Below are positions 1,369 to 56,962 of a stretch of DNA of 64,000 nucleotides, in pieces. Where the stretch lies: sequence record NC_054921.1; one strand, given 5' to 3'. How positions within the stretch are numbered: the stretch's first letter is position 1; each line of letters begins with the position of its first letter. Below the pieces are notes generated by a model. The model made no database searches. It was given only the letters and a program-made list of their open reading frames with translations, and was not told the origin of the DNA. Source of the DNA: Escherichia phage vB_EcoM_IME537. A program made the position numbers and the translations under genes.

Positions 1369-2794
1369 AAAATTTTAATTCATTTGCCAAAGCATCTAAC
1401 TGGGCTCGAGTAGATTCATTTCTTTGATAGCGATTCTGCTCAGCTTGTATCTGTTGTGAACCTGCTACTTCGTTCACTTCGGTTGGAGTAGAATCTTGCT
1501 CAATTTCTACCCATTTTTGATTTCCTTTTTGAACACCCATCAAAAACTTATTCCATTTATTCTTATCACCATATCGTGATTTGATTTGCTTAATGAGTTG
1601 CTGTTCAGCCGCTGCTAACTCCTCGGTTTCAATGACCGCAAGCATAAAATCGGCTGTTGCTGGAAGACCGGCAGATTCTGCAATATCGCTCATGTTAACA
1701 TCAGAAGAATCCCAAGCTTGCTTACCAACCTGTGCTGCAGTCCAAAGAACAGTTTCGGTTTCAACAGCTAGAGCACGCAATTCCTCTGCGATAGCTTTAA
1801 CAGTTGTGTAACTATTTTCTGAGTAAACTCTGATGCGACAAGATTTACAAATACCTAGATAGTCGACAATAATGATTGTTGGAACAAAATTCTTCTTGAG
1901 CTTTAATTCGTTTAAAAGCGATCGAAATGTATTAGCGTCTGCTCCACCAGTAGGATACTGTTTAACGATTAAACGTCCAAGAGTAGATTTCTCACGCCAT
2001 TTTTCCATTTTTCCTTTATATTCAGCGTAAGAAATATGCCCATCATCAATGTCATCAAGAGAAACGTCAAGCATATTAGCATCAATACGTTTAGCACAGA
2101 CTTCTTCTGCCATTTCCATGGAAATGTAAAGAACATTATGACCGAGCTGTAAATAATCTGCTGCCAATGAACACAGACCTAATGACTTACCAACGTTAAC
2201 ACCAGCCATTAAAACGTTCAGTGTTCCAGTTTCAGCTCCGCCTTTAGTAATTTTATTTAGAATTTTGAGTTTAAATGGAACCTTACGAGCTTTATTCATA
2301 TAAGATAGCCAACGTGCTTCATAGTCATCCATCCAATCATGACCAACGTAACTATCAAATGAAATTGATAATGCTTGGCGCATGATGTCAGGAATAGCAC
2401 CAACATCCGGCATTTTCTTATTTCGTTTTTCCGGAGGAAGCTCAGCATTGGTTTGAATTTCAATTATTTTAGACGTAGCATTAAACATCGCCCTTTGCTG
2501 AACATATTTTTCTGTTTCTTTTACTAACCAGCTGTGGTCTTCCGGAGAATCGGTTAGTTTTGAAATAAGTGTTTTTACACCAGAATATTCTGTTTCAGTA
2601 AATGAACTATTTTCTAATGCAACATTTAACGCATTAATAGATGGAACGCTATGATACTCATTAACATGTGATTTAATTAATTTGAATGTATTTTTAGCTG
2701 GACCACTTTCAAAATATTCTGAATCCATATATGGCCAAACTTTTGAAAAATAAGCTTGATCAAATATGAGATGAGAAAGAATAATTTCTACCAC
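1367..2794 (-). CDS. 41: replicative DNA helicase gp41
   Basis: 475 aa, DnaB-family P-loop (GVNVGKSLGLCSLAADY); same length as T4 gp41; followed by uvsX and 43 in T4 order. Confidence 0.9.
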   Translation of the reverse strand: MVEIILSHLIFDQAYFSKVWPYMDSEYFESGPAKNTFKLIKSHVNEYHSVPSINALNVALENSSFTETEYSGVKTLISKLTDSPEDHSWLVKETEKYVQQRAMFNATSKIIEIQTNAELPPEKRNKKMPDVGAIPDIMRQALSISFDSYVGHDWMDDYEARWLSYMNKARKVPFKLKILNKITKGGAETGTLNVLMAGVNVGKSLGLCSLAADYLQLGHNVLYISMEMAEEVCAKRIDANMLDVSLDDIDDGHISYAEYKGKMEKWREKSTLGRLIVKQYPTGGADANTFRSLLNELKLKKNFVPTIIIVDYLGICKSCRIRVYSENSYTTVKAIAEELRALAVETETVLWTAAQVGKQAWDSSDVNMSDIAESAGLPATADFMLAVIETEELAAAEQQLIKQIKSRYGDKNKWNKFLMGVQKGNQKWVEIEQDSTPTEVNEVAGSQQIQAEQNRYQRNESTRAQLDALANELKF

Positions 2795-4316: not shown

Positions 4317-4393
4317 TCATTTTTTCCATAGGCATCATTATATTTTCCTCACTGGTTAAAGATAGGGTAATTATAACACAATAAATTTAGGCA

Positions 4394-6797: not shown

Positions 6798-6831
6798 TGT
6801 ATAGTACCACGGAAGAACAGAGATGTAAACA
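6798..6831 (-). promoter_or_regulatory. T4-type early promoter cassette (PeSL-like, family A)
   Basis: Minus strand GTTTACatctctgttcttccgtggTACTAT; about 70 bp near-identical to 50505-50585. Confidence 0.55.
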
Positions 6832-33100: not shown

Positions 33101-33820
33101 TTAGGATTCTTCTAAATGTCTTTTCTGAAAAGTTGATACCATACTACGATACGGTTCATTTGGATATCCGTGTTTTATAGCTTCCTTTGTAAATTTTCTC
33201 CATCCATATTTAGTTTCTTTCCAAAGCTCGAATAATTCATCTTCATACTGCCATATAGTTAAATGAGAACGCTTTGCAGCTTTAATTCCATTAATATGCT
33301 TTTCTTTTACTGCAGGATTGCTTAGTTTCTTTTTAATAATATTACTAACTTTTCTAACAAAAACTGGGTCCTTATATCGTTGCGAAGTTTTTATTGAAGT
33401 GTTTAATTTAGCTTCCGGCGTGGATGTAACCTCTTTCATCTTTTTCTTCATATGCTGTATATGATTAGGATTTTTCCATAAATTTATAGAATGCTTTTTG
33501 CATTTTATCCTAGTTTCATCTGCAACCTTTCCTCCTTCACCCCCGTATGACAGGTTAACACAGTTTTTTCCATATTTCAATTTACCTGCCATGATATATA
33601 ATATTTCAGCTTGTACCATTTTATCATAATTATCAAAAACTTCTAAAACCGTTTTTGATAATATGTGGTCATTTGACACTTTTACACGTTCTATATAATT
33701 TCCACTACCAACATACGAATCATTGATGTTATTAGTTATATGTCGACCATAATAGTATTTCTTAATACCTGTCTTTAAATTTAATATTTCAGTTTTATAG
33801 ATAGTAAAATATTTTTTCAT
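33101..33820 (-). CDS. free-standing Seg-like GIY-YIG homing endonuclease
   Basis: 239 aa; N-terminal GIY-YIG-like module (YFTIYKTEI...KKYYYGRH...YVGSG) resembling segB in this window; basic C-terminal DNA-binding region. Confidence 0.6.
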   Translation of the reverse strand: MKKYFTIYKTEILNLKTGIKKYYYGRHITNNINDSYVGSGNYIERVKVSNDHILSKTVLEVFDNYDKMVQAEILYIMAGKLKYGKNCVNLSYGGEGGKVADETRIKCKKHSINLWKNPNHIQHMKKKMKEVTSTPEAKLNTSIKTSQRYKDPVFVRKVSNIIKKKLSNPAVKEKHINGIKAAKRSHLTIWQYEDELFELWKETKYGWRKFTKEAIKHGYPNEPYRSMVSTFQKRHLEES

Positions 33821-34797
33821 TTTAATAATACCGTTTCAGCAATTTCTTCCCAACCGTTTTTATCGGTCATAATAAAGTCAGCAAGATAAAGAGCAGTACG
33901 CAGTGAAACATTGCGTAAACGATTAACATTGACTTTCATCCATGATAATGCTTTATAAGTTTCTTCATCAGAAAGACCGCGCTTTTGCATCATGTCGGTT
34001 GAAAGAATAACATCTTCAACCCTGACCATAATTTCTTCATTAGTGTGAACACCCAAATCCAAATAAACTGAGCGGGATACTAATGCTTGTAAATGTGGAG
34101 CAAGTTTAGTACCACGGTCTAATTCGCGGTCAATGTCAACGTTTGTGATAAAAACAATCGTTCCTTTAAATTCAAACTCACGCTCAATGCCTTTTTCTTC
34201 TAAGTAAGAAGATGCAGTGCTCCAGCAGACTTTACGGGTCTCTCCAGTGTCCAGAGCGGCTTTTAGAAGATTAAGAATGTCCATATCAGAGAAAACATCC
34301 ACATCATCAATCAAAAGGACAGAATTCTCTTCACGATTATTCCAAAGTTGTTCATAAAGACCGATACCGGAGATTTTACCGTTAATGCTTTTATATTCAA
34401 TGTATCCATTATCATTTGCTTTATTCAAAGCTTTATCTAAAGAATACGTTTTACCAATACCTGCTGCACCAGAGATAATTAATGAACGAATGTTTCCGTT
34501 AATAATACCATTCGTCATCATTCCCATAACATTAAATCTTTTATTAATGCGGGTTTTCATATCTTCATATGATTCTTTAACTTCTTCAACTTTTACACCA
34601 TCATATGAAATGTCTGATTTGTAAACCCAAACACCGCGACGTTTACCGTCAATTTCAACAAAAACTTTACCATCTCCTTGTGCATCTACCGGAGCATTAT
34701 CTGGGAACCATTCACCTAAGAGCTCAAAAGTTCCAGAGATTTCTTTACCGAAGTAGATACCCTTATTGATAGTTACAGTTTTCATTTTATTCTCCAA
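33817..34797 (-). CDS. P-loop ATPase (AAA+-like)
   Basis: 326 aa; Walker A GAAGIGKT, Walker B VLLIDDVDVF. Confidence 0.55.
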   Translation of the reverse strand: MENKMKTVTINKGIYFGKEISGTFELLGEWFPDNAPVDAQGDGKVFVEIDGKRRGVWVYKSDISYDGVKVEEVKESYEDMKTRINKRFNVMGMMTNGIINGNIRSLIISGAAGIGKTYSLDKALNKANDNGYIEYKSINGKISGIGLYEQLWNNREENSVLLIDDVDVFSDMDILNLLKAALDTGETRKVCWSTASSYLEEKGIEREFEFKGTIVFITNVDIDRELDRGTKLAPHLQALVSRSVYLDLGVHTNEEIMVRVEDVILSTDMMQKRGLSDEETYKALSWMKVNVNRLRNVSLRTALYLADFIMTDKNGWEEIAETVLLK

Positions 34798-34818
34798 TTT
34801 TACATTTGTTTTGATAGG

Positions 34819-34852
34819 GTAATAGTATCACACTACTACCCTGCTGTAAACA
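34819..34852 (-). promoter_or_regulatory. T4-type early promoter cassette (family B)
   Basis: Minus strand GTTTACagcagggtagtagtgtgaTACTAT. Confidence 0.5.
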
Positions 34853-34854
34853 AT

Positions 34855-35118
34855 TTATTTTAATGTTCGCCAAATTTTTACTGCTTCGCGACGAGATACT
34901 TCTACAGCTCCAAGTTCTACAGCTTTTTGGCGTCGCCGAGCGTGTAAGTCATAATGTTTAATGCGTTTATCTTGAAACCAAGAACGTTTCATTCCTATTG
35001 CTTCTGCCATTTCGTGAAGCTCTTCAATATCTCCATCAGTGAACATATGACAATTTTTAGTTGGATGACCGCGAAGTTTCCATCCATGATTCATTAAAAC
35101 ATCTACGTAAACTGTCAT
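34855..35118 (-). CDS. DUF4031-like small protein
   Basis: 87 aa; MTVYVD...CHMF.D...EELH.MA..IG..R.WFQ...HYDL pattern as I recall for DUF4031. Confidence 0.45.
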   Translation of the reverse strand: MTVYVDVLMNHGWKLRGHPTKNCHMFTDGDIEELHEMAEAIGMKRSWFQDKRIKHYDLHARRRQKAVELGAVEVSRREAVKIWRTLK

Positions 35119-35264
35119 TGATTCTTCTCCAAATAAGTTTCGATAATTTTCTGAGCGAGATAAACTGCATTATCTTCAGTTGCATCTTCTAAGAAACTTT
35201 CAAAACACTCTGAAATTTCTTCTGTGTCAATCAACTTTTTTACTTCAATTGGTGTAATTTTCAT
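35115..35264 (-). CDS. hypothetical small protein
   Basis: Track ORF 35115..35333; start moved to MKITPIEVKK downstream of the promoter -10 element. Confidence 0.3.
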   Translation of the reverse strand: MKITPIEVKKLIDTEEISECFESFLEDATEDNAVYLAQKIIETYLEKNQ

Positions 35265-35298
35265 TTTGTTTTTCCGTTTAAGTGTTTGTTTTGATAGT

Positions 35299-35323
35299 TG
35301 TATAGTACCATAAGCCCGAAGGC
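35299..35323 (-). promoter_or_regulatory. promoter -10-like element fused to a UUCG hairpin (partial cassette)
   Basis: gttgtatagtacca family-A -10 segment followed by agcccgaaggct hairpin; no GTTTAC -35. Confidence 0.3.
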
Positions 35324-42974: not shown

Positions 42975-43436
42975 TCATTGAGTTTTAATTACTGCTTTAG
43001 AAGCCTTTCCTGGTAAACGACGACTGTTGATAATTGCCATCCTACATTGAAGTGACGGGTCTTTGAACTTCGCGTTAGGTTTACAAACTGTAAATCCAAG
43101 CCAAAGATTTCCATCTGTGATTTCTAAACGTCCAGGACGATATTCAACCCCATCAATAAAATCCTCGTCAATGTCAGGACGCGGAGGCATACTCAGGAAT
43201 TCATTAACTTCTAAAACATGGTCTTTTATTTTGTGGAATAATTCAAAAACATATGTCTCATCAATCTCCCGTTGAATTGCACGGTCAAGAAGATGCTGAG
43301 AATATTTTAGATGAAACGATGAGACCCCTGCTGCTTTTGATGCCTCACGAATCTCATTGTTAATTTGACGAAACTCCGACTCAAAGTGACGACGAAGCTT
43401 ATTTCGACGGATAAAAACTTCTGTATTGATAGTCAT
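42975..43436 (-). CDS. regB: RegB endoribonuclease
   Basis: 153 aa, near-identical to T4 RegB from memory. Confidence 0.88.
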   Translation of the reverse strand: MTINTEVFIRRNKLRRHFESEFRQINNEIREASKAAGVSSFHLKYSQHLLDRAIQREIDETYVFELFHKIKDHVLEVNEFLSMPPRPDIDEDFIDGVEYRPGRLEITDGNLWLGFTVCKPNAKFKDPSLQCRMAIINSRRLPGKASKAVIKTQ

Positions 43437-43460
43437 ATTATTCTCCTCTTAACTGATAGA

Positions 43461-43494
43461 AAAATTATACCACAGTCAAGAGGAAAAGTAAACA
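43461..43494 (-). promoter_or_regulatory. T4-type early promoter upstream of regB
   Basis: Minus strand GTTTACttttcctcttgactgtggTATAAT. Confidence 0.55.
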
Positions 43495-43495
43495 G

Positions 43496-43816
43496 TTATT
43501 CTTTAAATCTAATCAATTTATTCATAGACTTTGAAACTTCTGCACGAACCTCATGTAGATTTTTGAGCTGTTCAAGACGCTGCTCATAGTAAGCAATTTC
43601 ATCTTCTTCGAGACAGTCCTGTGAATCTTCTTTAAGATAACGTGCATAGTCCTGGAAAGCGTTACGAACTACTTCCTGGAAGTCATCAAGACTTTGAATT
43701 TTCTTAGGAGCAACAGATACACGACGAGGGGCAGTATAATACTCATAACCAAACCCTGCGCTTAATTGGGCCATTAATATTTTTCCTCTGGTTGGAACAC
43801 AGCACGGCAAGCCCAC
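43496..43816 (-). CDS. hypothetical protein (vs.3 position)
   Basis: 106 aa ORF. Confidence 0.4.
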
Positions 43817-45633: not shown

Positions 45634-46107
45634 TTATTTGAACGATTTAACGTACTGAATAGAACCTTTACTATTCACGAAAGCGATTTTACCATTTTTA
45701 TTATACATGGTAGCAGTACGCTGATAACCATAAGTTTGTTTACCAGATTGATAACCAACTAATGCGAAATTATCTTCACCCATTTTATTCTGTTTAGCGC
45801 GAATACGTTCATGTCCATGCGCCATAAGAACCTTAGCATCACCAGTTGCAATGGATCGACGAGTTTTTTCATCTTCAACTGTATTAACAAAATCATCAAA
45901 TGAATCAAATTTAGCATGAGATTTATTATACAGTTTTCCATCTACTGCATAATTATATCCCTGTACATCCATCTCAACTTCTGTACCATCATCTAATACA
46001 GCAGTAATTTTCTGTCCTTTTTTAAATTTCAAAAGATCAGTAAAAGATTCAGCAATAATTTGAGAATTAATAGCTGCTTCAGTAATAAATTCTTGATATG
46101 TTTTCAT
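45634..46107 (-). CDS. internal-protein-like head protein with capsid-targeting leader (ipIII/ipII locus)
   Basis: 157 aa; N-terminal MKTYQEFITEAA matches the T4 internal-protein capsid targeting sequence; located next to e. Confidence 0.55.
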   Translation of the reverse strand: MKTYQEFITEAAINSQIIAESFTDLLKFKKGQKITAVLDDGTEVEMDVQGYNYAVDGKLYNKSHAKFDSFDDFVNTVEDEKTRRSIATGDAKVLMAHGHERIRAKQNKMGEDNFALVGYQSGKQTYGYQRTATMYNKNGKIAFVNSKGSIQYVKSFK

Positions 46108-46147
46108 ATGTTTCCTTTAAATGTAAATATTTTAATTAGTAACTGTG

Positions 46148-46181
46148 AATATACTATCACAGTTCTAGGAGAAAGTAAACA
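46148..46181 (-). promoter_or_regulatory. T4-type early promoter
   Basis: Minus strand GTTTACtttctcctagaactgtgaTAGTAT. Confidence 0.45.
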
Positions 46182-46184
46182 ACT

Positions 46185-46715
<531 letters not shown>

Positions 46716-49635: not shown

Positions 49636-50166
49636 TTATATCCCATTATTTGAGAGATGTAAACTATTTTTAATTTTACAAATTCGTTCAGCTTCATCGA
49701 TAGCAGCATTAATAATGCTTTTAGCTATAGGAGTACTAATACTAGTAGCTTTTACACTTAACACGATTTCTTTATCTTTACCAGGCCAACCCCACGATTT
49801 TTCACCGTGAGTGCCTTTAATTACAGCAGACACCTCAAGTGAGCATCCATTATCACATGTTTTTACATTAACAACCCAAGGGTCACTTTTCTCAATCGGT
49901 TTCTCAATCGGTTTATCCCAGTAAATATTAAGAATACGTGGAACATCAAATTTGGCAGGACAAATCTTAACCGTAAGACCTTCGCTTTCTAGCCAATTAA
50001 TAAGAGGGCGTTCATACAGGCGACGATGTGGGCTTGGGATTCGACAAGCCTTATGTCCGTTGCTTGCGGCTTCACTAAGCTGTTCTAATACCTGCTTTTG
50101 CATTATTGATAAAATACCATCAAAAGATCTTTCGGAAGTTTCATTCAGTTCGGTATAAAGAGACAT
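49636..50166 (-). CDS. hypothetical protein
   Basis: 176 aa ORF. Confidence 0.4.
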   Translation of the reverse strand: MSLYTELNETSERSFDGILSIMQKQVLEQLSEAASNGHKACRIPSPHRRLYERPLINWLESEGLTVKICPAKFDVPRILNIYWDKPIEKPIEKSDPWVVNVKTCDNGCSLEVSAVIKGTHGEKSWGWPGKDKEIVLSVKATSISTPIAKSIINAAIDEAERICKIKNSLHLSNNGI

Positions 50167-50221
50167 AACAGTTTCCTCAAATTATAGGCTCATAATATCT
50201 CAATCATGAGCCTATGTAAAC

Positions 50222-50485
50222 TTATTTCATATTATTGAAATATTCTTCTGCGATTTCGTCGTTATCATGGTAAACTTTAGAAGACAGTTTAACATAACCT
50301 TCAGCAGTGAACATGTTAATCACAACCTTTACAGTATACCACTGACCGTCTTCATTACCCATTACTGCATAAGTTTCAAACATCGGATGGTCAGGACCGA
50401 TAACTTTAATATCATTCACTGTACGACCGAAATCTTCTGAAACACATTTCATAAAGAAGTTGAACAGTTCGCCGTAATTATCCAT
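50222..50485 (-). CDS. hypothetical small acidic protein
   Basis: Start at MDNYGELF; the longer track ORF (to 50680) reads through the upstream promoter cassette. Confidence 0.4.
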   Translation of the reverse strand: MDNYGELFNFFMKCVSEDFGRTVNDIKVIGPDHPMFETYAVMGNEDGQWYTVKVVINMFTAEGYVKLSSKVYHDNDEIAEEYFNNMK

Positions 50486-53239: not shown

Positions 53240-53312
53240 CTGGGAATAAAGGACTCGAACCTTTGCATCCTGGAATCAAAATCCAGTGCCTTACCAACTT
53301 GGCTAATTCCCA
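53240..53312 (-). tRNA. tRNA-Gln (anticodon UUG)
   Basis: Acceptor TGGGAAT/ATTCCCA; anticodon loop TTTTGAT. Confidence 0.8.
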
Positions 53313-53409
53313 ATTATTAACAAAGGCTCTTAAGCAAGAACCCTTGATGATAGAGGGTATTAATCAGTGCGATATGAGTTAATAATAACAAATAATTCTT
53401 AAAGCATAT

Positions 53410-53697
53410 TTACCATTTATAATAATACATATTTACGATGCATTCAAGACCCAAAGGATTCTTGAAAATATCATATTCAAGAGGACCTTTTTCTGTTTCA
53501 ATAAAGAAATCAAAATTTACTGTATTAAATTTACGTTCTTCCTTCACTAATTTAACTTGAGAAGATGAACGGTCAATGTAAACCTTTTCAACTTCAAAAC
53601 ATGTTAAAATGCCATAATCATCAATCAAAGCTTTAGCCGCGTCTTGATCATATTTATATCCATTTTCAATGGATGATACTTTCGCATAAAGAATCAT
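53410..53697 (-). CDS. hypothetical protein
   Basis: 95 aa ORF. Confidence 0.4.
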   Translation of the reverse strand: MILYAKVSSIENGYKYDQDAAKALIDDYGILTCFEVEKVYIDRSSSQVKLVKEERKFNTVNFDFFIETEKGPLEYDIFKNPLGLECIVNMYYYKW

Positions 53698-53699
53698 TA

Positions 53700-54083
53700 T
53701 CAGCCTTCATCAACAATAGTGTGAGTATGGGCATTTACGATTTGCCACCAGTCAAAACTATCGCCAAATCGTTTTGATTTATTGTCTTCAATAATTTGGC
53801 GTAATTCATCTTCTGTTTCAGCATACGCAATCAAATCATCATATCCACCACGAGGATAATAATTATCACCTGCAAAAAGTAAAAAGTTTGGTTTAATGTT
53901 ATTGAACTCTTCAAGAGTAATAACTTTTCCTGACGGTTGAACAATCTCTACATATTTATATCCCAATTTTTGAGCAGCATCTACTGCTTCAAGCAGGGTA
54001 TCATGAGCCCATCCAATTTGGCAATCTGGCTTTTCAGATGGATTAGCCTGATAATCCGCGTACACTTTATACATTCTATTCAC
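53700..54083 (-). CDS. hypothetical protein
   Basis: 127 aa ORF. Confidence 0.4.
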   Translation of the reverse strand: MNRMYKVYADYQANPSEKPDCQIGWAHDTLLEAVDAAQKLGYKYVEIVQPSGKVITLEEFNNIKPNFLLFAGDNYYPRGGYDDLIAYAETEDELRQIIEDNKSKRFGDSFDWWQIVNAHTHTIVDEG

Positions 54084-54261
54084 CTTTAGAAATTTTATCC
54101 ATAACGATAGCGATTAAACCAATTAAAAATGCTACTACAAGTGAAAAAACATTTTCTGCTGTAGTCAATAATCCGCATATAAATCCAACAAACATTGAAA
54201 AACTAAAAGCGGAAACAGAAATTGCAATAGCAACATTTCGAATTAATTCACAACGTTTCAT
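54076..54261 (-). CDS. small membrane protein
   Basis: 61 aa, two hydrophobic segments; GAGGAG RBS and early promoter upstream. Confidence 0.45.
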   Translation of the reverse strand: MKRCELIRNVAIAISVSAFSFSMFVGFICGLLTTAENVFSLVVAFLIGLIAIVMDKISKGE

Positions 54262-54286
54262 TTTATTCTCCTCAGTAGTTGATAGG

Positions 54287-54320
54287 GTAATAGTATCACT
54301 ACCCTATCTAAAAGTAAACT
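54287..54320 (-). promoter_or_regulatory. T4-type early promoter cassette (family B)
   Basis: Minus strand GTTTACttttagatagggtagtgaTACTAT. Confidence 0.5.
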
Positions 54321-54553
54321 TATTTTTTACGAAAAATTGATTTATTTTCTGCTGCCCATTTTTCAATAACTGCAGCAGGACCAGTAACAACAATTTTATC
54401 ACCGTAATCTTCTGCGGCGAGTTGACCGAAATTATCTAATGCATCACGAAGAACTCCATGAGGCATTTCACCCATTTTATCTTTCTTACCAGTGTAAATA
54501 AACTCAACTTTTACATCAGCCGCTTCATTGATAAATTCTTTGAAAGTTTTCAT
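54320..54553 (-). CDS. internal protein (ipI-locus, capsid-targeting leader MKTFKEFINEA)
   Basis: About 77 aa from MKTFKEFINEAADVK; the track start (54619) reads through the promoter cassette. Confidence 0.5.
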   Translation of the reverse strand: MKTFKEFINEAADVKVEFIYTGKKDKMGEMPHGVLRDALDNFGQLAAEDYGDKIVVTGPAAVIEKWAAENKSIFRKK

Positions 54554-54584
54554 TTTGATTTCCATTTGGTTTTGTTTTGATAGG

Positions 54585-54618
54585 GTAATAGTATCACAAC
54601 TAAAACTCCATGTAAACA
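54585..54618 (-). promoter_or_regulatory. T4-type early promoter cassette (family B)
   Basis: Minus strand GTTTACatggagttttagttgtgaTACTAT. Confidence 0.5.
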
Positions 54619-54629
54619 ACTTTATGAAA

Positions 54630-54887
54630 TTATTTCAAATCTTCTAATCGTTTCTTCATCTTAGAACCATTTTTAGCAATTTCTCCTGCATCGGAGCATA
54701 ATGCTAAAAGTGCTTTAACTTTAGTTTGGTCTCCTTTAAAAGATGAAGGATCGACTGCAGCAGCAAGTTCTTTAATACGAGAGAAAAGACGCTCAGCTTC
54801 AGCTAAAGCCATTCCAAGCTTTACTTCCATACCGTGAGAAGATTCAGTGATAGTAGTTTTTGTAGCAAACTCTTTGAAAGTTTTCAT
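54630..54887 (-). CDS. internal protein (ipI-locus, capsid-targeting leader MKTFKEFATK)
   Basis: 85 aa; N-terminal MKTFKEFA leader. Confidence 0.5.
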   Translation of the reverse strand: MKTFKEFATKTTITESSHGMEVKLGMALAEAERLFSRIKELAAAVDPSSFKGDQTKVKALLALCSDAGEIAKNGSKMKKRLEDLK

Positions 54888-54913
54888 TTTATTTTCCTAA
54901 TTAATTTTGATGA

Positions 54914-54948
54914 GGTAATAATATCACTACCTCATCAGTATGTAAACA
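54914..54948 (-). promoter_or_regulatory. T4-type early promoter cassette (family B variant)
   Basis: Minus strand GTTTACatactgatgaggtagtgaTATTAT. Confidence 0.45.
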
Positions 54949-54959
54949 ACTTTGTGAAA

Positions 54960-55656
<697 letters not shown>

Positions 55657-55657
<1 letters not shown>

Positions 55658-56382
55658 TATAGTACCTTTAGTGTATTTTTAATTTTAGAAAAAAGTTCTT
55701 CAAGAGAACCATCGTTTGTAATTACTAAATCACCATCACGAATTGGCAATCCAGCTTCTGTAATATGTGTATCATTGGATTTTTGACCAGGACGAACTAC
55801 ATGAATTACTGTAGCACCCATCGCCCTAGCCGCATCCATTTCATGATCTTGACGAGTATCAGGAACGATATAATAATCATAACCTGAGTTAAATTTATCA
55901 AGATAATCTAAAGCAAATAATTTTACCCAATACATGCGGTCGAAGTTATTAACAATCAAATCCGTACCTAGGGCTTGCATCAGACGACGGACTGACCATT
56001 GATCTTCAATATTATTTATAACGTCAATAATCTTGTTACATGCTACGGAATCAACTGATTCTTGTCCTTCGTCCTCAAAAACACACACCCCCTTAATTGG
56101 GCTTTTACCGTTAAGATAGCAAAATGCTTGTTCCATAATCGTGATTACTTCTGATTTAGTCAGATTTAAATTAGTCTCACGATCATAGTCAATTCCTTCA
56201 AACTCTTTACGAGTTAAGCAAGGATAGTCAGTGTTTTCTGCAAATACACCCCATGCATAAGCCAATGCATCTTTAATAGGACCAGCAAGTTGATATTTAA
56301 CTGCAGAATAATTATTCATGATAAAATCTGCAGTAGTATCTTTTCCACTACGCTTTACACCACTTAAAAAGATTAGTTTCAT
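55657..56382 (-). CDS. 1: dNMP kinase gp1
   Basis: 241 aa; P-loop GVKRSGKDT; near-identical to T4 gp1 from memory. Confidence 0.9.
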
Positions 56383-56431
56383 ATGTTTCTCCTCAAATTT
56401 AGTTAAGATTATAACACATGAAACTGAAGCA

Positions 56432-56962
56432 TTAAACTTCTGCTATAATTTTGCCATCTTTTTCTACTTGAAAATACGTATAAGGAATCGTTGCTGTACA
56501 TACTAAAGCTGGGTCTGAATCTTCAGTGTAGCTAAATTCTACTTCAGACAGGTCAGAAACCCAAGGCTTATAAAAATTTATTGACATCACGATTTCAGTT
56601 TTACTATTATCTAAAATGTAAAGCGTAATGTATTCAGGACCTGTTTTTTGGGCAGTATTTTCACCTGTAAGATAGTTGCTAGTTCCTAGCATCCATTCAT
56701 ACATTCCTATCCACGACTTAAGCTCTTCATCAACTATAAATCTCACAATGAGTGGGTCGTACTCAAATGTAACACCTGGACGTTGTGCTCGGCCCAGTCC
56801 AAACGGCCCAGTCACGGTATCAGTAACAGGTATTCTAATTCCTGGAATAGGAACTGATTGAGCATTTAAAGTAAAAGCAGATGTAGTATTACTATGTGGT
56901 ATTGATACTACAAAGTTAGTTGTATTTGCTTGGTTAAAAATTTGTTGTAGTGCTTGCGACAT
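56432..56962 (-). CDS. 3: tail sheath stabiliser / tail completion gp3
   Basis: Start at MSQALQQIF with GAGGAA RBS (176 aa); the track start (57043) is an upstream extension. Confidence 0.75.
   Translation of the reverse strand: MSQALQQIFNQANTTNFVVSIPHSNTTSAFTLNAQSVPIPGIRIPVTDTVTGPFGLGRAQRPGVTFEYDPLIVRFIVDEELKSWIGMYEWMLGTSNYLTGENTAQKTGPEYITLYILDNSKTEIVMSINFYKPWVSDLSEVEFSYTEDSDPALVCTATIPYTYFQVEKDGKIIAEV

Follow-up and report, generated by a model that had tools for sequence, protein, structure and literature searches.

Early-promoter cassettes as very probable portable homology for the exchange of promoter–gene units at the internal-protein locus of a T4-like phage

Modular shuffling mediated by cassettes that combine an early promoter with a stem-loop (PeSLs) was described by Arbiol et al. 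(2010, PMC2839356); in that work, the elements of the T-even internal-protein (IP) locus, T4 early promoters with weaker A/T-rich stem-loops, were treated as analogues and not as homologues of PeSLs. A comparison of Yersinia phage PST with T4 gave the consensus TTTACW-N17-TAYWAT and repeated the link with the IP locus (Comeau et al., 2014, PMC4122927). According to papers that cite an earlier study (Repoila, Tetart, Bouet and Krisch, 1994, EMBO J 13:4181), variable sets of IP genes bearing a capsid-targeting (CTS) leader are found at two loci together with conserved early-promoter-like sequences, and a shuffling mechanism for the IP palette was hypothesized there. In the record of the T4 tRNA region (X03016), the homologous sites are annotated only as putative ("put.") early promoters, with PE2 in front of ipI and PE1 in front of ORF2 (now trna.4). 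A "pot. stem-loop structure" overlaps each of them; the second of these stem-loops bears the label "pot. IpI terminator." Both the cassette observation and its interpretation as shuffling were thus already known for T-even phages from work of 1985–2014 (X03016; Repoila et al., 1994, as cited in later papers; the PeSL papers of 2010 and 2014).

T4 early promoters belong to an "uber" UP/-35/TGn/-10 class with further consensus regions (Hinton, 2010); a literature search for start-site or terminator maps of T4 yielded nothing usable. In experiments with T4, recombination at short homologies often occurs and gives rise to deletions and amplifications. Ip1, Ip2, and Ip3 are inhibitors of GmrSD type IV restriction enzymes, each acting on a different one. 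Here, the corresponding locus was analyzed in a 64,000-nt stretch of DNA from Escherichia phage vB_EcoM_IME537 (hereafter, the window) and compared with these systems.

Genes and early-promoter cassettes of the internal-protein interval

The window was classified as a Tequatrovirus (T2/T4/T6-like) genome. Its 53.4–55.7 kb region had 94–97% identity to hundreds of Tequatrovirus genomes, including GiZh, T6, and Yersinia phage PST. The gene order on the minus strand was T4-like: gene 1, 57A, 57B, two small CTS-bearing genes, trna.4, trna.3, trna.2, the tRNA cluster, and segB. The order in PST was identical to that of the window, and its two small genes are annotated as ipV and ipVI, an annotation present in both PST and GiZh. 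The features of the interval and the additional cassette found elsewhere in the window were as follows:

54960..55415, minus strand: gene 57B, the conserved left flank of the variable interval
54909..54947, minus strand: cassette P1, predicted early promoter before ipV; -35 GTTTAC at 54947..54942, TGn, -10 TATTAT at 54923..54918, predicted +1 at about 54911
54867..54897, minus strand: 31-nt repeat comprising the Shine–Dalgarno sequence (SD), start codon, and CTS-coding stretch, copy 1 (ipV); 90% identity by the repeat finder
54630..54887, minus strand: ipV, internal head protein, 85 aa; CTS leader MKTFKEFATKTTITE; phrog_3499, E 1e-49
54579..54617, minus strand: cassette P2, predicted early promoter before ipVI; -10 TACTAT at 54593..54588, predicted +1 at about 54581
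54533-54563, minus strand: SD, start, and CTS-coding repeat, copy 2 (ipVI), partner of copy 1 in the repeat finder
54320..54553, minus strand: ipVI, internal virion protein, 77 aa; CTS leader MKTFKEFINE; phrog_8111, E 2e-51
54281..54319, minus strand: cassette P3, predicted early promoter before trna.4; -10 TACTAT at 54295..54290, predicted +1 at about 54283
54076..54261, minus strand: trna.4 homologue, predicted membrane protein, 61 aa, the conserved right flank of the variable interval
34813..34851, minus strand: cassette P4, predicted family-B early promoter before the nrdC.10 homologue, with a 12-bp hairpin at 34816-34842

The ipV and ipVI products were 100 and 96% identical to IpV and IpVI of PST, respectively, and the trna.4 homologue was 98% identical to that of T4 and PST and had matches in 525 GenBank records. 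Both IP products begin with MKT(F/Y)xEF and continue to an (L/I)xE prohead-protease site; packaging, and cleavage directly after MKTFKEFATKTTITE and MKTFKEFINE, are predicted. The capsid-targeting leaders that the initial annotation had seen in two of the downstream genes (MKTFKEF...ITE and MKTFKEFINE) were thereby borne out, and both products fell into PHROG families of internal head or virion proteins. The third CTS gene of the window lies at a second IP locus, behind an early promoter at 46180. The SD/CTS repeat carries homology further, to the right of the cassette. It was also observed that ipV and 57B have their last codons and stop context in common.

The motif anatomy was read directly from the DNA and points to cassettes of the T4 early-promoter type, whose activity is predicted from it. 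All four copies carry GTTTAC-N18-TA(C/T)TAT-TACC(C/T)(T/C)ATC on the minus strand, and an independent promoter scan returned 54946..54918 and 54616..54588 with a 17-nt spacer (TTTACA-17-TATTAT with TG in P1). Each copy thus combines a -35, spacer, and -10 with an extended -10 (gTGa before the -10 in all four) and an A/T-rich, UP-like stretch in the 30 nt upstream (for example, tttaaaataatttcacaaagtt). An SD and ATG follow on the correct strand about 30–45 nt downstream of the -10 for ipV, ipVI, trna.4, and the nrdC.10 homologue, and the -35 of P3 directly adjoins the ipVI stop codon. On this reading, host sigma-70 RNA polymerase would use the cassettes right after infection, and each would make the gene behind it (ipV, ipVI, trna.4, or nrdC.10) an autonomous early transcription unit.

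The similarity among the copies was likewise directly observable. The 19-mer GATAGGGTAATAGTATCAC matched exactly at 54281-54299, 54579-54597, and 34813-34831 and with three mismatches at 54909-54927 (GATGAGGTAATAATATCAC) and 4361-4379, i.e., five matches against 0.01 expected from shuffles. On the plus strand, each of the four copies opens with GAT, and GTAAAC closes it exactly 39 nt from the copy start. The repeat finder extended three of them to a 71-nt family, with 54575-54645 (P2) as the reference and identities of 80% for 54905-54975 and 62% for 54277-54347; the extended P1 repeat takes in the 57B stop codon. The units are spaced at 298 and 330 bp. The initial annotation had reported four cassette copies, and all four were recovered as 39-nt cores; however, its intervals were displaced by about +6 on the left and about +1 on the right, and its sequence was quoted on the plus strand while the genes lie on the minus strand. 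Its statement that each copy fronts a small gene held for P1–P3 (ipV, ipVI, and trna.4) but failed for P4, which precedes a 322-aa gene outside the IP locus. The copies could be aligned beyond the -35 and -10 hexamers, as the 71-nt (62–80%) and 31-nt (90%) repeats demonstrate, which is contrary to the outcome named in advance as fatal to the proposal.

The question was how much of this similarity reflects promoter function in general. In total, 17 GTTTAC-N18-TAnnAT sites were present on the minus strand of the window, with the shared consensus GTTTACaT...TGTGaTAcTAT...cCTAtcAa. Outside both hexamers, identity among the four copies was 57–70%, whereas the remaining pairs of early promoters in the window averaged 39%; family A (6830, 32713, and 50558), at 80–97%, was far tighter. 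Family B is a loose sub-cluster, mainly defined by TACC after the -10, and the similarity among its copies partly reflects the general early-promoter consensus and function and not shared descent alone. The earlier description of a distinct second family therefore has to be narrowed to a sub-cluster, since much of the 19-mer is general consensus. The 4361-4379 site was rejected as a fifth family-B early promoter because GTTTAC is not at the right distance. It looks like a MotA-box middle promoter and has only the TACCCTATC start region in common with the cassettes.

These observations bear on pure functional convergence, according to which the copies are alike through an extended early-promoter consensus and have no part in gene shuffling. 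Such a consensus is documented (Hinton, 2010), its window-wide form TGTGaTAcTAT...cCTAtcAa covers much of the 19-mer, family B reaches only 57–70% outside the hexamers, and values between family B and other promoters go up to 60%. However, P1 and P2 are 80% identical over 71 nt, including a stop-codon-proximal block and non-consensus positions. Convergence would also leave unexplained the inter-phage breakpoints at cassettes, the reassortment of half-cassettes in all combinations, and a slippage duplication inside one cassette (see below). Convergence alone was rejected on the 71-nt similarity, the chimeric cassettes, and the junction positions, and we regard it as very improbable.

Inverted repeats around the -10 element

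Three of the four copies contain a 12–13-bp inverted repeat, in whose loop or inner stem the -10 would lie. The following hairpins were predicted:

54908..54937, minus strand: P1 hairpin around the -10 as its centre, 13-bp stem, 4-nt loop; -17.4 kcal/mol, z -4.1
54281..54308, minus strand: P3 hairpin, 12-bp stem, arms GATAGGGTA/TACCCTATC; -17.4 kcal/mol, z -2.4
34816-34842, minus strand: P4 hairpin, 12-bp stem; -17.8 kcal/mol, z -4.1

The P1 palindrome, with perfect 10-bp arms TGATGAGGTA/TACCTCATCA, was found independently by the repeat finder at 54908-54937. The P2 hairpin is degraded in the window (-10.9 kcal/mol, z -1.6); its arms TAGGGT/ACCCTA are kept in the relatives L004 and L035. Between P1 (GATGAGGTA/TACCTCATC) and P3 (GATAGGGTA/TACCCTATC), both sides of the stem have changed and pairing has been kept; the arm sequences are entirely different between cassettes, with complementarity retained. 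No hairpin was predicted for the promoter at 6830, the sole family-A promoter folded.

The register of the arms relative to the -10 differs by cassette type; therefore, enrichment was assessed by permutation of matched and mismatched arm partners and by counts of mismatch types. In 4/17 window promoters, the -10 was flanked by a perfect inverted repeat of 8 bp or more, against 1.1% of mismatched-partner controls (p=2e-4), the remaining two of the four being those at 50221 and 46180. Among 61 non-redundant promoters from all fetched loci, the frequencies were 28% vs 9% at at least 6 bp and 6.6% vs 1.6% at at least 8 bp. The hairpin is, thus, a minority feature of about 15–30% of early promoters. 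The cassette set was then enlarged by one viral and one metagenome scan to 193 distinct cassettes, 45 of which, in 9 clusters, had inverted repeats of at least 9 bp. Single mismatches in the arms comprised 10 G·T, no A·C, and 2 others (p about 0.001). This excess of G·T over A·C favors pairing in the sense-strand RNA and is not expected from a symmetric palindrome in duplex DNA.

The mismatch counts also bear on the idea that the inverted repeat is a DNA element, either a cruciform or a palindrome bound by a protein or nuclease, which controls the promoter or starts site-specific recombination. The -10 does lie at the centre of the palindrome, segB, a homing endonuclease gene, is found close by, and a sequence-specific protein initiating targeted recombination was raised as a possibility by Arbiol et al. 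(PMC2839356). However, arms that differ wholly between cassettes are unfit for a single sequence-specific binder, 10 G·T against 0 A·C mismatches are unexpected for a duplex-DNA palindrome, and crossovers fall in the shared core and flanks with no single fixed point. A role at the DNA level, therefore, appears highly unlikely.

Pairing at the RNA level would concern only some of the transcripts. Among the nine promoters whose stem is 7 bp or longer, six have a 3' arm that stops 5–6 nt past the -10, immediately ahead of the predicted start. The promoter's own transcript would consequently be free of the hairpin, and read-through RNA from the upstream unit would contain it. Such RNA would bear the hairpin right after the upstream stop codon, where it would most likely act as a weak attenuator and/or 3'-end stabilizer insulating neighboring units.

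A stronger role, in which the hairpins are intrinsic terminators that fully stop upstream transcription, would agree with their location immediately after the upstream stop codon, with a stability of about -17.5 kcal/mol, and with the termination by RB49-type PeSL stem-loops in reporter assays (Arbiol et al., 2010, PMC2839356). However, behind the A/T-rich stems come AAAAUU, AACUAC, or AUCAAAAC, with no U-tract, and a terminator scan of 53300-56500 detected none except one within gene 1. The G+C-rich stem and U-tract of a Rho-independent terminator are missing here, in contrast to the terminator gggagccttcgggctcccttttttatttc at the T4 nrdC.11/nrdC.10 junction, which has the genuine GC-rich, U-tract form. 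The intrinsic-terminator reading was rejected on the lack of a U-tract and the negative scan. Full termination is quite unlikely, and a terminator function of the hairpins is doubtful.

From their position and composition, we favor for the hairpins the role of an RNA-level attenuator or 3'-end stabilizer at unit boundaries. P2 and the chimeric cassettes described below persist with broken hairpins, which indicates that the hairpin is dispensable. We only tentatively consider a broader proposal, rather doubtful at present, that the hairpin embedded around the -10 has been selected for as an RNA element, instead of arising as a by-product, and would serve T-even early regions in general as a "unit-boundary" device, marking, stabilizing, or attenuating the upstream mRNA at the very point of firing of the next promoter. 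Arms that co-vary between cassettes, with sense-strand mismatches of the G·U type only (10:0), would fit this proposal. If such a hairpin were combined with the shared core, promoter–gene units would be transcriptionally self-contained wherever recombination places them.

Unit combinations and junctions in related phages

The presence and absence of units in related phages could be read directly. Between 57B and trna.4, from zero to five CTS genes were found, and all of the unit combinations occurred at Tequatrovirus-level identity (the first five of the following entries):

ipV and ipVI: the window, PST, L047, and L133, with cassettes P1, P2, and P3
ipV only: L161, with a P2-left/P3-right junction promoter
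ipVI only: L035/L045 and L113, with P2 directly behind 57B
ipI: T4 and L145, with the P2-left/P3-right junction, as in L161
a different IP gene, 102 aa: L034/L044, bounded by P1 plus the CTS and by the -35 of P3
up to five IP genes: L019
no IP gene and a single cassette: L008, L009, L092, and L117

In a GenBank census, the flanks were present in about 500 records, ipV in 250, ipVI in 218, and T4 ipI in 164. Cassette–gene units, thus, varied in presence across relatives, as had been predicted.

The junctions inside cassettes were also directly visible. BLAST breakpoints fell in the 21-nt core GTGATACTATTACCCTATCAA, in the upstream block GATTTRAAATAATTTCAYAAAGTTGTTTACAT, in the CTS codons, or exactly at the -35. 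Both T4 PE1 and the junction promoter of L161 are P2-left/P3-right hybrids crossing inside the shared 21-nt GTGATACTATTACCCTATCAA, and the right half of P3 is identical to that of T4 PE1. The 39-nt cores of P1 and T4 PE2 are identical except for 1 nt, and homology with T4 ipI reaches 54853. In L035, 57B is joined to the P2 unit within the shared upstream block, and the replacement in L034 ends exactly at the -35 of P3. Chimeric cassettes of the P2-left/P1-right and P3-left/P1-right types were found in L048 and L051, and L051 has a tandem 19-nt slippage duplication inside a cassette. Half-cassettes are swapped likewise in L013 and L015, which belong to other genera.

The fourth copy extends the comparison beyond the IP locus. 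P4 fronts the nrdC.10 homologue (34785..33817, minus strand, 322 aa) and occupies the 3' end of a 515-bp segment (34798-35312), which holds two small ORFs and P4 and stands in for 85 bp of T4 containing a terminator and a family-A promoter. Homology with T4 resumes between the P4 start region and the nrdC.10 SD. The T4 nrdC.11/nrdC.10 junction carries a canonical GC-rich, U-tract terminator, unlike the cassette hairpins. In other phages, a P4-type core precedes three unrelated genes at other loci.

An alternative origin of the locus is local tandem duplication and divergence of one unit consisting of a promoter, CTS, and IP gene, with the repeats as relics. The units have the same orientation, similar lengths (298 and 330 bp), and a common leader and CTS, and the last codons and stop context shared by ipV and 57B would also fit. 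However, the mature parts of ipV, ipVI, and T4 IPI had no detectable similarity to one another, the CTS alone being common to them; the units are independent and differently combined in close relatives; and the occurrence of P4-type cores before three unrelated genes at other loci is not expected from a local event. In-place duplication of one IP gene was rejected on the ground that the cargo proteins are alike in the CTS only, and the duplication model as a whole is unlikely.

We consider it very probable that T4-type early promoters serve as portable homology for swapping promoter–gene units at the IP locus. Each cassette would offer 20–70 nt of near-identical sequence, supplemented at the IP genes by about 30 nt of SD and CTS-coding sequence, and such lengths would provide portable homology for the very active homologous recombination of the phage. 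By crossovers in the cassettes, within one genome or between co-infecting phages, units between 57B and trna.4 would be deleted, inserted, or replaced, and the outcome would be a diversified set of injected anti-restriction internal proteins. Recombination is here the process that we infer from the breakpoints inside cassettes, which support the cassette-mediated assembly of gene modules suggested by the initial annotation, with the qualification that comparisons of this kind do not reveal the direction of gain or loss.

Cassettes are not the only route to mosaicism. The trna.3 allele had 51–53% identity to T4 and PST between flanks of 94–100%, with no cassette on either side, and many IP genes arranged in tandem in other genera are not separated by a promoter. 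These cases indicate that cassettes facilitate mosaicism and are not required for it.

Internal proteins enter the cell with the injected DNA, and, where tested, each disarms a specific type IV restriction enzyme; the inhibition of GmrSD by Ip1, Ip2, and Ip3 would give IP shuffling a selective rationale. Self-contained units and portable homology would explain the quick reshuffling of the T-even anti-defence repertoire and, hence, shifts of host range, a background of use for annotating T-even phages and engineering therapeutic ones. The principle is decades old, and the finding confirms known biology without extending it; the additions are modest: T4 PE1 was reconstructed explicitly as a hybrid of P2 and P3, all unit combinations were catalogued, and G·T mismatches were seen to outnumber A·C ones, which points to a hairpin at the RNA level.

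Comparison with known systems

The closest counterpart is the T4 locus itself (X03016), where PE2 and PE1 are flanked by the same genes and the stem-loops also overlap the region from -35 to -10. T4 has two cassettes and ipI, whereas the window has three cassettes with ipV and ipVI and a degraded P2 hairpin. PST, analyzed by Comeau et al. (2014, PMC4122927), has an ipV–ipVI locus identical to that of the window.

A functional parallel exists with integron gene cassettes, which are small single-gene modules with short hairpin-forming recombination sites arrayed at one locus. Unlike in the integron, there would be no integrase and no single common promoter; each unit would have its own promoter and be exchanged by general homologous recombination.

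The likeness to PeSLs is greater. In both cases, an early promoter is combined with a stem-loop, the elements are intergenic and clustered in hyperplastic regions beside variable small ORFs, and crossovers are inferred inside them. In the window, too, the cassettes lie next to variable ORFs, with indel and replacement junctions inside the motif. The PeSL stem-loop of RB49 and phi1, however, has a GC-rich sequence, precedes a near-perfect sigma-70 promoter, and is an efficient terminator, while that of the window is A/T-rich, overlaps the -10, and lacks a U-tract. No terminating stem-loop was found upstream of the promoters, and P2 has no significant hairpin; the cassettes of the window, therefore, agree with PeSLs in their setting and in the position of their junctions and differ from them in the stem-loop.

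Recombination traces and the trna.3 allele

The 3' end of ipV (EDLK and stop, gat ttg aaa taa; 54630-54645) closely resembles in DNA that of 57B (DDLK and stop, gat tta aaa taa; 54960-54975), one of the conserved flanks of the variable ipV/ipVI interval. These last codons and stops are nearly identical; thus, the repeat formed by P1 and P2, the family-B early-promoter cassettes before ipV and ipVI, includes about 12 nt of coding sequence from the end of each upstream gene. The shared ends may have been left behind by the crossover that put ipV in place, or they may be coincidental.

In L051, a related phage locus used in the comparison, the 19-nt sequence GATACTATTACCTCATCAA was tandemly duplicated (approximately 2043-2081, minus strand) upstream of an internal protein gene, within a chimeric cassette combining a left part of P3 (the cassette before trna.4) and a right part of P1. 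This duplication looks like a scar of recombinational slippage.

A further variable gene was located beside the interval:

53700-54083, minus strand: trna.3 homologue, flanked by trna.4 and trna.2

The identity of the trna.3 protein was only 51-53% to those of T4, PST, L004, and L035 and 85% to that of L034, and the flanking trna.4 and trna.2 showed 94-100% identity. No promoter cassette was found on either side of trna.3. Judged by these sequence comparisons, trna.3 is an allele replacement that has no flanking cassette.

Promoter families and the nrdC region

A fifth match to the 19-mer shared by the family-B copies was detected at 4361-4379 (minus strand), with three mismatches. GTTTAC was absent from its -35 position; instead, TGCCTAA, which resembles a MotA box, precedes TATAAT by about 12 nt, and the family-B start region TACCCTATC comes after TATAAT. 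From its sequence, the site looks like a middle promoter having its start region in common with early promoters. The family-A promoters form a tighter group than family B, with 80-97% identity outside the hexamers, and no hairpin was found in 6830, the sole copy folded.

-35 at 6830, 32713, and 50558, minus strand: family-A promoters, GTTTACatctctgttcttccgtggTACTATacaactatcaact

The site of P4, the family-B cassette before the nrdC.10 homologue, is occupied by an A-type promoter in T4. Window 34798-35312, which comprises P4 and two small ORFs, substitutes for the 85-bp nrdC.11/nrdC.10 intergenic region of T4; in T4, this region carries an early promoter of the family-A type together with a canonical GC-rich terminator. 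Relative to T4, the nrdC.10 and nrdC.9 homologues are separated by an inserted homing-endonuclease-like ORF, with T4 homology ending at 33104 and 33838.

within 34798-35312: 72-aa ORF, phrog_6888
within 34798-35312: 87-aa ORF, phrog_4887
33101-33820, minus strand: 239-aa ORF, homing-endonuclease family match, phrog_314

Hairpins in early promoters

The strongest -10-spanning hairpin of the window, within 50169-50234 (minus strand), has a 13-bp stem with arms ATAGGCTCAT/ATGAGCCTAT (-18.8 kcal/mol, z -5.2). At the second internal protein locus, the -10 of the early promoter is bracketed by the inverted repeat AACTGTGA/TCACAGTT; the gene that follows is the only one in the window, besides ipV and ipVI, to bear a capsid-targeting sequence (CTS).

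50166..49636, minus strand: 176-aa gene whose early promoter contains the hairpin within 50169-50234, phrog_6869
46128-46193, minus strand: early promoter preceding the CTS gene
45634-46107, minus strand: CTS gene, 157 aa, MKTYQEFITEA..., phrog_3155 internal virion protein
43441-43506, minus strand: early promoter (at 43493) with inverted repeat, before the regB-like gene
43436..42975, minus strand: regB-like endoribonuclease gene, phrog_1323

The inverted repeat at the 43493 promoter spans 11 bp with one mismatch (arms CCTCTTGACTG/CAGTTAAGAGG). The Shine-Dalgarno (SD) sequence of the regB-like gene falls within the 3' arm, and the RNA of 43441-43506 folds at -20.9 kcal/mol (z -3.6). The SD would be sequestered in read-through RNA and free in the transcript from the 43493 promoter itself. 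By analogy, this putative SD-covering hairpin resembles the known translational control of T4 e, soc, and I-TevI.
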